DNA of 64,000 nt from a phage. The stretch is from the NCBI GenBank assembly GCA_012112355.1, contig GCA_012112355.1_3028.1; one strand, given 5' to 3'. A model generated the notes under the pieces. The model was not told where the DNA came from. It saw nothing but the letters and a program-made list of their open reading frames with translations, and searched no databases. The first letter of the stretch is position 1. Every line of letters starts with the position of its first letter. This document shows positions 14,600-39,429 of the stretch, one piece after another. Made by a program: the position numbers and the translations under genes.

Positions 14600-14874
14600 T
14601 CGAAATAATCTTCAATTTCATAATCATGGACGTAAATCATTATAGTTTTTAATACATCATCAATACTTTTTCCTGGAGCTGGAATTACGTAGAAATATCC
14701 TGCTTTTGAGAGGTCTTTATAAGTTCCAATCAAGAAATCATTATTCTCAAGATGTAGTTCTTCAACTAATTCATTAACAATTGAATGGTATAGGTTTGGT
14801 AGAAACTTATATAGCTTTTCTAGAATATCAATTTTGATTGTGTATTGAACCACGGATTGAGAATCAATAATCAT
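14596..14874 (-). CDS. arn: anti-restriction (anti-McrBC) protein Arn
   Basis: 92 aa, MIIDSQSVVQYTIKIDILEKLYKFLPNLYHSIV...; size and position of T4 Arn next to asiA. Confidence 0.75.
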   Translation of the reverse strand: MIIDSQSVVQYTIKIDILEKLYKFLPNLYHSIVNELVEELHLENNDFLIGTYKDLSKAGYFYVIPAPGKSIDDVLKTIMIYVHDYEIEDYFE

Positions 14875-14957
14875 AGACCTTCCCCTTATGTTTCTGTTTG
14901 CGATTAGATTCTTTAAACGCTTTCTTCTTATCCTTATGAACAGAAGCTTTATTAAAA

Positions 14958-15176
14958 TTATGTTTTGCGACTAAATTGTTCATAGTGCTGAATTACCTCT
15001 CTCAAACATTTGCATGTGAATGAAAACTTTTTAGCTACACCACATTCAAATATATGTTCTCTTAAATCGTGTGTATCCGTATATCCCATCTCAACAATAA
15101 AATGCCGTATTAGATTTTTATCTTTATCATTGAGAGAATTAAAATAATCAGATTTTGAATTAATTTCCCTGGCCAA
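14958..15176 (-). CDS. hypothetical early protein (arn.1-like position)
   Basis: 72-aa ORF in a tightly packed same-strand array between arn and motA. Confidence 0.45.
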   Translation of the reverse strand: MAREINSKSDYFNSLNDKDKNLIRHFIVEMGYTDTHDLREHIFECGVAKKFSFTCKCLREVIQHYEQFSRKT

Positions 15177-35832: not shown

Positions 35833-36015
35833 TTATTTTGCCCAGGGAGCCCAAGGCGGAGGGTCAAGATGGTATGAAGCTAGTTCTTCTAGAAGAGCAT
35901 CTGGGGCTTCAATTCCATAATTCTGTAATACTATACGGTACTCTTTCTTATAATCACTAGAATCATTCTGGTTATTCGTAGAATGATTATCTTCTAACAT
36001 CTCAAATAAATCCAT
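35833..36015 (-). CDS. hypothetical small acidic protein
   Basis: 60-aa ORF, start overlapping the upstream stop. Confidence 0.4.
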   Translation of the reverse strand: MDLFEMLEDNHSTNNQNDSSDYKKEYRIVLQNYGIEAPDALLEELASYHLDPPPWAPWAK

Positions 36016-36023
36016 ATTAATTC

Positions 36024-36494
36024 CTAGCGATAAAAACCAAAGTGACGATTAGCTTCAATGATCTTTCTTTCTTCTTCGGACATTCTCCAGCGTAGTCCAA
36101 CATCAAAATGAGCCCAGACCATCCTAACAAATGCATTTATATCTTTAATATCTTCAATAATGAATGTTTTACTTTTAGAAGGTTGACTCGCTAATTTAAC
36201 TTTATCGTCTTCAAACATGTCAAAAAGACCATATTCATGAGCTCTTTTATAGCCTTTAATAGTTAAAGCTTCAGAAGAAGAAAATGGTGAATCTGTATTC
36301 TGCAAAATATCTTCAGTATGCTTTATAATTAGAATAACATTTTCTGGATATTTTCTTTCTTTTATATCTTTAATTAAAATATCCGGATTTTCTGCTAAAG
36401 GAATAATTAACGAGCATTTTTTATCAAGTGTATTTACTGATTTACCTTCTTTAGACATAAATTCTATTGAATATAATTTTGCTACTTCAATCAT
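36024..36494 (-). CDS. hypothetical protein (mrh/srh region)
   Basis: 156-aa ORF. Confidence 0.45.
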
Positions 36495-36651
36495 GTGATT
36501 TCCTTTTGCCTACTAATGGACCGTCAGGAATTTTGTTTTCCTGAATGTATTTCTCATTTTCTTCCATCATTTTACTACCGATTTTAAGAAGCAAATCCAT
36601 TGCTTCATTTGCTTTAGCCTTTGCCTCTTCTAACGTCATATCTTTGGTCAT
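36487..36651 (-). CDS. hypothetical small protein (~54 aa), below track cutoff
   Basis: Manual translation [54 protein letters not shown]; stop overlaps the next ATG. Coordinates approximate. Confidence 0.3.
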
Positions 36652-36851
36652 GATTTATCACCATAGATGTCTCTCATCAATTTAAGCGCTGAGCGTTCTA
36701 ATTTCTTTTCTTTCTCAGCACTAATCATTGATTTTATCCATTCTTCTGACTCGTTCTGCATTTCTTTATTTGCCTGTTCAACCCAACCATCATCAATATA
36801 CATTGAGTTTGGTCTATTGAACCATTCAAGCATTTTCTTCAGAACTTTCAT
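36648..36851 (-). CDS. hypothetical small protein
   Basis: 67-aa ORF. Confidence 0.4.
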
Positions 36852-37323
36852 TTGTTTTACCTAAAACGATAGTATGGACAGAGTCAAATTCATGAATTTT
36901 TAGCAAATTAGGATTTAAATTATTCCATAAAGAGGTAATAAAATATGATAGCGCACTTTCGTCCGTAATTATAAATTTATTTCCTTTATCTATTTTCCAA
37001 TCATATATTGAATCGTATGAATAGAAGGATAACGGTTTATTATTATAGTATGCTTCAGCAACATCAATATAGTTAGATTTAGTAAATGCTTGAATTGCCA
37101 TAAATGGAGAATTTTGTACAGTTTCAATAATTCCGATCTTTTTAAGTTTTATTTCAACATCTTCTGGAACTGGCATTGAAATAAAATCTTCTACTAGATA
37201 CATGTCATTGTCATATCTTTTATCAATCATTACTGCTACTGTAATTGGAACATCCTTGACAAACGCCATACTAATACTATTGATAGACATTTCAAACAAA
37301 ATCGCTTCCATAATTTTCCTCAA
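36826..37323 (-). CDS. hypothetical protein
   Basis: 165-aa ORF. Confidence 0.45.
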
Positions 37324-37661
37324 TCACAAGATGTAGATGAACAACTAGAATCACAAGAACTTCCACATGAATCGCCCGTCCATACATGAACAGGAACATT
37401 AGTATCATATGAATCAGAACTAGACTGTGTATTCTGTGCATTAGATGATGTAGTAGGTACTGACCAGCGCCAAGGATTTTTATAATATTCTTGGGCTTCT
37501 TCATAAGTCATAGTAACTGCTTCTACTGTTCCATCTCCCATATAAACATACTCAACTACAGTTAAAGGAAGGTAGTCATTTGAAATAGGAACTACACCTT
37601 CTCCCGGAGTTGTAGAGAAAAAATCTGTAAAGAAATTTTTAAACCAATTAAATATAAACAT
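37320..37661 (-). CDS. hypothetical protein with hydrophobic N-terminus and Ser/Cys-rich C-terminal tail
   Basis: 113 aa; ends ...[20 protein letters not shown] (six Cys in the last 17 residues). Confidence 0.45.
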
Positions 37662-37867
37662 TACAAAAAGCCTCTTTTGAATTCGACTTGCTTATCGCCA
37701 TAATCATATCGAATCTCTGCATTAAATTCGACAGAACCATCTGCGTACATCATAAATGAATGCACAACAACTTCTGTGGACCATGGCTGCAGTTCATATT
37801 TCTTCATTACATGCCGTGAAATGATAATATCTAAATCTTCATTTGGTTTAATCCAACGATTTAACAT
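37661..37867 (-). CDS. hypothetical small protein
   Basis: 68-aa ORF; its stop overlaps the start of the Cys-rich ORF. Confidence 0.4.
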   Translation of the reverse strand: MLNRWIKPNEDLDIIISRHVMKKYELQPWSTEVVVHSFMMYADGSVEFNAEIRYDYGDKQVEFKRGFL

Positions 37868-37937
37868 AGTGCTCTCCTCTATAAGATAATTCTATTATAC
37901 CACACTCATTTTGATATGTAAACTGCAAAAACGAAAA

Positions 37938-37959
37938 AAGGAACCCCGAAGGATTCCTT
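37938..37959 (-). terminator. hairpin (aaggaacc-ccgaagg-attcctt) downstream of soc
   Basis: Inverted repeat immediately 3' of the soc stop on the minus strand. Confidence 0.45.
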
Positions 37960-38238: not shown

Positions 38239-38448
38239 TTAAATTACATGATTATTTATAATAAATTCTCGCGGAACGTTAAAATATCCGATTTTAGTTA
38301 ATATAACAACATCACCGTTAATAATTACCGGAGAATAATCTTCTGGAGTGTTAAATTTCCAATGGGATCTAATATTATATCCATCAGAACCAAATGCTCG
38401 AGTAGCCGGTCTCCCGGCTTTTTGCCACGCGTAGAAATCAAATTTCAT
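38239..38448 (-). CDS. hypothetical small protein
   Basis: 69-aa ORF between gene 56 and soc. Confidence 0.4.
   Translation of the reverse strand: MKFDFYAWQKAGRPATRAFGSDGYNIRSHWKFNTPEDYSPVIINGDVVILTKIGYFNVPREFIINNHVI
38253..38260 (-). promoter_or_regulatory. late promoter TATAAATA for soc
   Basis: Plus-strand tatttata = TATAAATA on the minus strand, about 30 nt upstream of the soc ATG. Confidence 0.5.
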
Positions 38449-38639
38449 TTTGAATGCTCTATAATTAATTTTAAAGCTTCTTCACTGACAAAAATTTCGT
38501 CAGGACCTTCTATAACTTCAACCATACGAAGTTGATTAGTTAAGAGCTCACATACGAGCTCCTTGTTATAATCTTTAAATAGCTGGTCAATACGTTTCTT
38601 ATGGGCTTTCTTAAGCTGACGCTTATTTAAACGAGCCAT
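38445..38639 (-). CDS. hypothetical small basic protein
   Basis: 64-aa ORF with stop/start overlaps on both sides. Confidence 0.4.
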   Translation of the reverse strand: MARLNKRQLKKAHKKRIDQLFKDYNKELVCELLTNQLRMVEVIEGPDEIFVSEEALKLIIEHSK

Positions 38640-39157
38640 TAATAACCTCGGTCTTGACGAGCGAAGTTTTCAGCATTTTTCAGGTAATAAAGTTTAAAGA
38701 TTTCTTCAGCCGACATTCCAAGAGCAATAAATTTATTCATGAAAAAGTGAAATTGGTCAATCAGTTCAAATTTAATTTCAAGCTGATCTTCAGGAGATAA
38801 GTCTTGAATTTTCTTGGATTGCATTTCAGAATAACGTTTCTTCCAAGGTTTCCATACAGCAGAAGCTTCTTTTTCACCATTACTCATACCACCAAGAGAA
38901 GTATATAGCTCGCGAGTTTCGTCTGCGATATAATCGTCTTGGTTTCGCAGCCAAGCAAGAACTTCTCCTGCAGTTTCAAGTGAATCAGGATGACGATTTG
39001 TTTCTGGTTTATCATTAGCCAAACGAATCTGTAAATGCCGCTGCATGTCAAGCATAACCTGCAATGGGTCAATACTGTGCATAATATACTCAGCATATGC
39101 ACGATTTGCTTTATCAACACCTTCGATCAAATGAGCACATTCATTAAAGTGAGCCAT
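38639..39157 (-). CDS. 56: dCTP pyrophosphatase gp56 (MazG-like)
   Basis: Track ORF 38639..39250 is over-extended; from the internal Met (MAHFNECAHLIEGVDKA...LQVMLDMQR...EIFKLYYLKNAENFARQDRGY) ~172 aa, matching T4 gp56. Confidence 0.85.
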   Translation of the reverse strand: MAHFNECAHLIEGVDKANRAYAEYIMHSIDPLQVMLDMQRHLQIRLANDKPETNRHPDSLETAGEVLAWLRNQDDYIADETRELYTSLGGMSNGEKEASAVWKPWKKRYSEMQSKKIQDLSPEDQLEIKFELIDQFHFFMNKFIALGMSAEEIFKLYYLKNAENFARQDRGY

Positions 39158-39228
39158 TATTTTTCCTTTCAATTCATGGGTTAGTAGATTAATTATACAA
39201 TAAATATATAAAGCAATAAGGAGGACAT

Positions 39229-39429
39229 ATGGTACAAAAATTAATGGCACTTGTTAATGCCATAAAAGGTAATAAAAAACGTATAGCTTTTACTATTTCT
39301 GCTATGGTAGGAATTTTACTCTGGAACTTTATTTTATCACCAATTGCAATTGCGCATGGTGTTAATATTCCAGTAGTTACTCTTGATACATTTGTAGATT
39401 TAGCATTTGCTTTAGTTGGGTTGATTTAA
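39229..39429 (+). CDS. hypothetical small membrane protein, the only plus-strand ORF in the minus-strand early region
   Basis: 66 aa, two hydrophobic segments; AAGGAGG seven nt upstream of the ATG; stop overlaps the gene 61 stop on the other strand. Confidence 0.45.
   Translation: MVQKLMALVNAIKGNKKRIAFTISAMVGILLWNFILSPIAIAHGVNIPVVTLDTFVDLAFALVGLI

Follow-up and report, generated by a model that had tools for sequence, protein, structure and literature searches.

The window analysed here, a stretch of 64,000 nucleotides of phage DNA (contig GCA_012112355.1_3028.1), is a segment of a Tequatrovirus genome. On its minus strand it carries, in this order, gene 56 (dCTPase), two small ORFs, soc, mrh.2, mrh.1, mrh, srh, modA.4 and modA.3. 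The 3.3 kb around mrh.1 are 98.2% identical to Escherichia phage AV122, and 602 phage records match this region. A first-pass annotation, made from the sequence without database searches, had placed a small protein at 37320-37661, and the ORF was found exactly there on the minus strand, with 113 codons from an ATG start to a TGA stop. The features of the locus are as follows:

37938..37959, minus strand: intrinsic terminator-like hairpin, 3' of soc
37894..37922, minus strand: strong sigma-70-type promoter-like site, TTTACA, 17 nt, TG-TATAAT (extended -10 TG), with 11/12 consensus matches
37661..37867, minus strand: mrh.2, 68 aa, phrog_1873, heads the early transcription unit that includes mrh.1
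37671..37676, minus strand: Shine-Dalgarno-like AAGAGG, 9 nt upstream of the mrh.1 ATG
37320..37661, minus strand: mrh.1 coding sequence, 113 aa, stop codon TGA at 37320..37322, assigned by the ORF list, identity to T4, PF23836 and phrog_2031
37292..37504, minus strand: His-rich overlapping ORF in the +1 frame, 70 aa with 8 His, not a gene
36826..37311, minus strand: mrh, 161 aa from the ATG at 37311, PF24070 T4_MRH, E 4e-41

The encoded protein has a predicted mass of 12.6 kDa and a pI of ~4. It is identical to the T4 protein NP_049642 at 109 of 113 residues, with no gaps, the same length and an identical tail; the differences are the four substitutions S9N, T68V, T75A and A95T (96% identity). 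In T4 (NC_000866), mrh.1 is annotated at 14685..15026, in the same slot between mrh.2 and mrh, and its product is recorded as an 'uncharacterized 12.6 kDa protein' (UniProt P20706). The match to the Pfam family DUF7206 (PF23836) runs from end to end (model positions 1-107 of 107; E 7e-30, 104.2 bits versus a gathering cutoff of 25.6). The protein also carries the signature of this family, i.e., EY.Y.GDG..EEV at residues 37-49, a terminal S-C-D and a second S-C-D upstream of it (C103/C112-D113), and it is assigned to phrog_2031 (unknown function). Judged by these matches, the ORF is almost certainly the ortholog of T4 mrh.1 (NP_049642, UniProt P20706; DUF7206), although the first-pass annotation had not recognised it as a T4 protein. 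The finding itself is ordinary, an annotated T4 gene in a copy of 96% identity; the gene was catalogued already and has never been characterised. Full-length membership in DUF7206 and PHROG 2031 gives the protein a name, not an explanation. Our literature search found no mention of mrh.1 or DUF7206 in the text of papers, and the sharply conserved C-terminal signature of the family is undescribed in the literature searched.

The start codon of mrh.1 overlaps the stop codon of mrh.2 (TAATG), and the identical overlap is annotated in T4, JS98 and other phages. An overlap of this type is the usual sign of translational coupling, and on this evidence mrh.1 is translationally coupled to mrh.2. At the other end of the gene, the GAGGA ribosome-binding site of mrh overlaps the mrh.1 stop codon. 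The promoter-like site, identified by consensus match only, lies directly upstream of mrh.2 and is a candidate promoter for mrh.2-mrh.1-mrh, and the terminator-like hairpin would keep late soc transcription apart from the early unit of mrh.2 and mrh.1. In phage NBG2, a terminator and a promoter are annotated at the corresponding places. The T4 time course puts mrh.1 RNA into the 'early' class and assigns none to the protein (Table S2 in PMC9697503). Furthermore, mrh.1 lies inside the dispensable region of T4 delta12 (map 16,280 to 3,778; PMC6070864) and is therefore not essential on laboratory hosts. We conclude that mrh.1 is a genuine early gene that is dispensable in the laboratory.

The His-rich frame overlapping the same DNA had been pointed out by the first-pass annotation, which had asked for confirmation of the coding frame by codon usage, ribosome-binding site and conservation in related phages. 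Among eight Tequatrovirus copies of mrh.1, the variable sites at codon positions 1, 2 and 3 number 15, 7 and 28, respectively, so that the third-position bias tracks the mrh.1 frame. The length differences among these eight genes consist of whole codons throughout, with indels of 2-4 codons. An exhaustive HMMER search (1.84 billion representative proteins) and a profile search (5.8 billion proteins) returned ~100 distinct full-length relatives, down to ~30% identity, all of which share the mrh.1 frame and carry PF23836. By its conservation, codon-position bias, whole-codon indels, Shine-Dalgarno-like site and TAATG overlap, the mrh.1 frame is the coding one, as the first-pass annotation had chosen. 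The opposite reading, which dismisses the ORF as spurious or takes the His-rich frame for the true gene, can point to the 58-62 open codons of the +1 frame in all Tequatrovirus copies analysed and to one database protein, P0006, that reads this frame. However, the +1 frame contains 9 stops in JS98, 5 in Enterobacter phage Entb_45 and 4 in Serratia phage CBH8, in all of which the mrh.1 frame is intact. The open +1 frame in Tequatrovirus is consistent with a by-product of the run of Ser and Cys codons. P0006, the sole record using the +1 frame, equals Mrh.1 up to residue 59 and is frameshifted thereafter; we rejected it as evidence for a +1 gene because it is a frameshifted mrh.1 annotation. Conservation thus refutes the His-rich frame as a gene, and we give this reading virtually no chance.

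All named sources of the relatives are T4-like (Tevenvirinae) phages of Enterobacterales, and the hosts of mrh.1-carrying phages include Escherichia, Shigella, Salmonella, Yersinia, Citrobacter, Klebsiella, Enterobacter, Kosakonia, Serratia, Hafnia and Edwardsiella. Among bacteria and archaea, a scan over 185,579 species genomes yielded no relatives. Among the matches in IMG/VR, the full contigs are genomes of ~155-175 kb, and the remainder are partial contigs of 6.6-117 kb. By tblastn, the mrh.1 product is present in 502 phage records at ≥80% identity, with matches spanning residues 16-94 only, as low-complexity masking left out both the N-terminus and the tail. Because of this masking, the conservation of the tail was read from the retrieved sequences. 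Where soc is annotated (T4, T2, NBG2, JS98 and CBH8), the gene always lies downstream of it; in Entb_45 it is flanked by a GDSL-type esterase gene, with no annotated soc. In most cases mrh.1 is coupled to mrh.2 and precedes mrh or srh; Serratia phage CBH8 has mrh.1 without annotated mrh.2, mrh or srh alongside. We considered and rejected paralogy of Mrh.1 and Mrh.2, since their profile-sequence similarity was not significant (hhalign probability 0.4%, E 0.15, 12 columns) and BLASTP found nothing.

The architecture of the protein was derived from the family alignment (100 members) and from an AF2 model calculated with this alignment; AF2 on the single Mrh.1 sequence was useless (pLDDT 43). The parts of the protein are:

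37617..37658, minus strand: N-terminal amphipathic aromatic helix, residues 2-15 (AF2 helix 3-15, hydrophobic moment and alignment)
37584..37607, minus strand: PGEGVVPI motif, residues 19-26, with P19 and P25 nearly invariant in the 100 sequences
37479..37562, minus strand: beta-hairpin and helix core, residues 34-61, with the near-invariant block EYVYMGDG(T/M)(V/M)E(A/E)V
37383..37466, minus strand: variable disordered linker rich in Ser, Thr, Asn and Gln, residues 66-93 (pLDDT <50, whole-codon length changes)
37323..37382, minus strand: acidic C-terminal tail, residues 94-113, with the family-wide C103 (SCDS) and C112 (terminal SCD) and the extra C99 and C107

The N-terminus of the family follows the consensus M-I-x-W-L-K-N-L-F-K and is longer and very aromatic in the T4 genus. 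It has Asn, Lys or Asp at every 3-4 residues, and its hydrophobic moment is 0.50-0.79, the observed value being reached by 130 of 5000 shuffled sequences. The N-terminal hydrophobic segment of the first-pass annotation is aromatic, and it is an amphipathic helix and not a signal peptide. The maximal Kyte-Doolittle mean over 19 residues was 0.84 in this protein and 1.34 in the family (threshold 1.6). Since neither a transmembrane-grade segment nor a lipobox was detected in any of the 100 members, we read Mrh.1 as a cytoplasmic protein.

The PGEGVVPI motif has the family form PGEG(V/M)VP(I/V). In the core, residues E37, Y40, G42, D43, G44, E47, E48 and V49 are invariant or nearly so. AF2 predicted a helix at residues 3-15, strands at 34-40 and 46-52 and a helix at 53-61; residues 34-61 are the sole confident part of the model (pLDDT 77-86), and most of residues 69-113 have values below 50. 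A Foldseek comparison of the model with the PDB returned nothing at E ≤ 0.001, a sequence-profile search of the PDB gave only a chance match to a capsid protein (E 0.38), and no solved relatives of Mrh and Mrh.2 were found. The linker preceding the tail is Ser/Thr-rich, as had been noticed before: Ser and Thr make up 41% of residues 66-92. It is rich in Ser, Thr, Asn and Gln in Tequatrovirus and is replaced by a charged segment in most other genera. Most genera also have a short hydrophobic run, D-T-T-P-I-V-V-A-A-A-V-S-S-W, between linker and tail.

The Cys/Ser-rich tail seen in the first-pass annotation is real, and the 15 residues quoted there are present, but the last 17 residues contain four cysteines (C99, C103, C107 and C112), not six. 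Their spacing, CX3CX3CX4C-D, is that of the T4 genus, to which the additional C99 and C107 belong. Exactly two tail cysteines are present in 94 of the 100 members, and only 7 members have a cysteine outside the tail. The protein ends in Cys-Asp in 98 members and in Cys-Asn in the remaining two. The first conserved cysteine lies within (G/S)-S-C-D-S in 82 members, and the last two cysteines are 4 to 12 residues apart across the family. The last 20 residues consist of 46% Ser, 17% Asp, 13% Gly, 10% Cys and 7% Tyr, and no Lys or Arg was found among the last 25 residues of any of the 100 members. The tail motif is kept across at least 8 Tevenvirinae genera named in the records examined. This conservation of the Cys-Asp tail is far beyond chance. 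The Ser codons of the tail switch between TCN and AGY across genera, its Cys and Asp codons vary synonymously, and the DNA 3' of the mrh.1 stop codon differs between genera. This indicates that selection acts on the peptide and not on the ribosome-binding site of the next gene or on a DNA element. A profile of the tail only (last 44 residues) retrieved two small Ser-rich proteins with non-significant scores (E 0.18 and 0.79) from 5.8 billion proteins; the sensitivity of this low-complexity 44-mer was poor, as known DUF7206 members were likewise not returned. To our knowledge, the strict C-terminal Cys-Asp has no counterpart.

From this anatomy we tentatively propose for Mrh.1 the role of a host-takeover accessory protein in the cytoplasm, with a flexible thiolate/carboxylate tail that would bind metal, a possibility rather than a probability. 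The N-terminal helix would dock the protein, be it on the membrane's inner face or in a host partner's hydrophobic groove, and the flexible tail would be its working end, chelating a metal ion or an Fe-S centre via the Cys thiolates together with the neighbouring Asp and the terminal carboxylates. Members with two cysteines would chelate across a dimer, and the T4-type members with four cysteines possibly within one chain. We prefer metal chelation because Cys and Asp are strictly kept, their spacing is tolerant, basic residues are absent and the cysteines are doubled in one genus. The variable spacing of 4-12 residues and the doubling in one genus are consistent with loose chelation rather than with a rigid fold. 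The metal-binding peptide suggested in the first-pass annotation is a reasonable hypothesis. However, no homology of Mrh.1 to a metal-binding family was found in Pfam, NCBIfam or the PDB, and with two cysteines in 94 of 100 members the family has neither the high Cys density with CxC, CC or CxxC motifs of metallothionein-like domains nor another known metal-binding domain. Two cysteines and no histidine, as in most members, would make a weak metal site unless the protein is oligomeric, and we know of no metal motif with an Asp beside each Cys.

Known systems offer analogies for both ends of the protein. MinD (KGFLKRLFGG) and FtsA carry membrane-targeting amphipathic helices that resemble that of Mrh.1 in being short and terminal and in the pattern aromatic-L-K-x-L-F. 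Their helix is C-terminal and that of Mrh.1 is N-terminal, and no homology is claimed; by analogy, the Mrh.1 helix may direct its protein to the inner membrane or to a partner. Phytochelatins and metallothioneins chelate metals through cysteines and acids and share with the Mrh.1 tail the acidic residues beside the thiols and the tolerant spacing. However, metallothioneins have far more cysteines than the two-Cys members of the Mrh.1 family, and there is no sequence or fold relationship.

The best-surviving alternative to metal binding, which we consider rather unlikely, is a reversible disulfide loop between the two conserved cysteines, with Mrh.1 serving as decoy, competitor or shuttle for the thiol-reducing systems of host or phage. 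The R1 subunit of class Ia ribonucleotide reductase (RNR) has a CX4C pair in its C-terminal tail that shuttles electrons from thioredoxin or glutaredoxin. As in Mrh.1, these cysteines are located on a flexible tail, but the two proteins have no sequence or fold relationship. The presence of exactly two cysteines in 94 of 100 members, the disorder of the tail and the tolerant spacing of 4-12 residues all agree with such a loop. On the other hand, the Asp after each Cys and the absence of a basic residue nearby are expected to give the thiols a higher pKa than is usual for redox-active cysteines, and a disulfide loop leaves the strict C-terminal Asp and the four-Cys variant of T4 unexplained. 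In addition, no similarity of Mrh.1 to thioredoxin-fold or RNR proteins was detected.

It is less likely still that Mrh.1 acts as a membrane-tethered inhibitor or decoy on the sigma-32/heat-shock circuit, with its tail plugging a host metalloenzyme or binding a host partner. Phage lambda provides the analogy for this, as its CIII protein is an amphipathic-helix inhibitor of the zinc protease FtsH and stabilises sigma-32. CIII, like Mrh.1, is a small early phage protein; its amphipathic helix is essential, and Mrh.1 shares the helix type and the sigma-32-linked gene company. It is an analogy only, since CIII has no Cys tail and no sequence similarity to Mrh.1. Support for a role in this circuit comes from the constant synteny of mrh.1 with mrh and/or srh in one early operon, from the amphipathic N-terminal helix and from the SWLK..PG N-terminal motif that Mrh.1 shares with Srh of other genera. 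Moreover, both mrh and srh influence late transcription in rpoH mutants as well as at 42 °C (PMC6070864). But synteny in the early regions of T4 is weak evidence for a shared function, and in CBH8 mrh.1 stands without annotated mrh, mrh.2 or srh neighbours. A bolder combination, which we hold to be similarly improbable, would make Mrh.1 a new kind of early effector: a MinD-like helix would bring it to the inner membrane, the twin Ser-Cys-Asp motif would capture a metal or an Fe-S centre or plug a host metalloenzyme such as FtsH, and Mrh.2, Mrh.1 and Srh would share a WLK-type helix and rewire the sigma-32/heat-shock circuit.

Microcin B17 and the lanthipeptides are ribosomally made peptides that derive from precursors, and the composition and layout of the Mrh.1 tail would suit a substrate for post-translational modification, with Ser-Cys in a Ser/Gly-rich 'core' behind a structured 'leader' and a host enzyme as the modifier. 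Tail residues 95-109 indeed match the FxLD lanthipeptide precursor family TIGR04363, the only hit in the family libraries beyond DUF7206. However, this match is weak (E 0.034) and reaches 14.1 bits compared to the RiPP-precursor cutoff of 30, and it is explained by composition. The annotated flanks of mrh.1 in T4, AV122, Entb_45, CBH8 and JS98 include no modifying enzyme, no relative turned up among the 185,579 bacterial and archaeal species genomes, and an exported peptide would be of no obvious use to an intracellular early phage protein. We therefore regard modification as very unlikely. Slightly more remote is the secreted or envelope disulfide-rich peptide envisaged in the first-pass annotation: the hydrophobic-looking N-terminus and the clustered cysteines would fit, but the 100 members contain no signal-peptide-like core, transmembrane segment (maximal mean 1.34) or lipobox, the N-terminus is amphipathic, and Mrh.1, with no hydrophobic segment of about 18 or more residues, shows the features of neither a Sec/Tat-exported nor an integral envelope protein. 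The probability left over from these readings goes to something else.

Altogether, the first-pass observation is partly confirmed and its interpretation partly supported. Orthology to T4 mrh.1 and the architecture described above very probably account for the locus; the mechanism proposed for the tail is much less certain. Mrh.1 is one of many T4 early genes of unknown function, and it now has a testable signature, consisting of the amphipathic N-terminal helix, the invariant GDG hairpin and the C-terminal twin Ser-Cys-Asp motif. If metal handling, thiol chemistry or a role in the sigma-32 circuit proved true, Mrh.1 would be a new tool in the host-takeover repertoire of T4.

The sequence of Mrh.1 also accounts for its behaviour in shotgun proteomics. 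In the T4 time course, the proteins Mrh.2, Mrh and Srh were detected and Mrh.1 was not (PMC9697503). The predicted tryptic peptides of Mrh.1 are 8, 53, 4 and 48 residues long; this absence is thus expected, because trypsin yields no usable peptides from the protein.

Sequence comparison showed that the tandem small early proteins Mrh.1, Srh and Mrh.2, together with the product of the gene upstream of mrh.1 in phage Entb_45, have a WLK-type N-terminal motif in common:

Window 37617..37658, minus strand: N-terminus of Mrh.1, motif MISWLKNLFKTKPGEG
Window 37661..37867, minus strand: mrh.2, protein N-terminus MLNRWIKPN
JS98 locus L005, 2848-3048: srh, representing Srh of other genera (also the gene after mrh.1 in the phage loci L017, L019, L021, L024 and L028), motif MKPLSWLKDWLDRPG or MRITSWLKDWLVTPG
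Entb_45 locus L003, 2316-2504: gene before mrh.1, motif MKLNPLPWIKNWLSQPD

Within the window, mrh.1 was the only ORF with the strict motif at its start. Judging from these sequences, the WLK-type N-terminus may be a targeting helix common to Mrh.1, Srh, Mrh.2 and the Entb_45 upstream protein. Residues 36-47 of Mrh.2 (HSFMMYADGSVE, window 37727..37762) also align with residues 36-47 of Mrh.1 (37521..37556), that is, with identical numbering. Since the similarity in a profile comparison of Mrh.1 and Mrh.2 was below significance (E 0.15), the paralogy of the two proteins is unproven.

Several phage records contain variants of mrh.1. One is the 164-aa Mrh.1 protein P0003, which occurs in Escherichia phage 235Ecol030PP as well as in 16 further sequences. 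It is of the T4 type and carries an insertion of 51 residues, after which comes the T4 tail with its four cysteines. The insertion matches the Dhakavirus-type linker (MEEIIRQPEKAGNVG...IDTAPIITATAVSSW), and P0003 seems to have arisen either by recombination between two mrh.1 alleles or by partial duplication. Versions of mrh.1 that are truncated, frameshifted or begin at an alternative start were present in the protein records P0004 (phage Sa45lw), P0006 (a 175-kb phage) and P0010 (TadeuszReichstein) and in the loci L009 (EO1) and L016. This set includes a 70-aa version starting at M41, a version truncated to 53 aa, a 141-aa version frameshifted into the His-rich frame (P0006) and the EO1 gene, which uses GTG as its start. 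These aberrant versions reflect either sequencing or annotation errors, or else occasional loss of the gene.

The interval between soc and gene 56 is occupied by two small ORFs:

Window 38239..38448, minus strand: ORF of 69 aa
Window 38445..38639, minus strand: ORF of 64 aa

T4, in contrast, has the homing endonuclease gene segF in their place; mobile endonucleases commonly show such a pattern of presence and absence. In the Entb_45 flank examined, a 504-aa GDSL-type esterase/lipase family gene (L003 724-2238) lies in the stretch from gene 56 to mrh.1, where soc is not among the annotated genes.

The mechanical ORF list makes two genes of the window too long:

Window 36826..37323, minus strand: mrh as listed, start TTG at 37323; real start ATG at 37311
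Window 38639..39250, minus strand: gene 56 as listed, start GTG at 39250; the T4-like protein begins MAHFNECAHL

The ATG of mrh is preceded by GAGGA, which overlaps the mrh.1 stop.

Homologs of modA.2, modA.3 and modA.4 (window ~35833..36651) are labelled 'molybdenum ABC transporter, periplasmic molybdenum-binding protein ModA' in many phage records (annotations under the matched records H1, H4, H9, H11 and H13-H16). This label is an annotation error caused by a name collision with the T4 ADP-ribosyltransferase gene modA.
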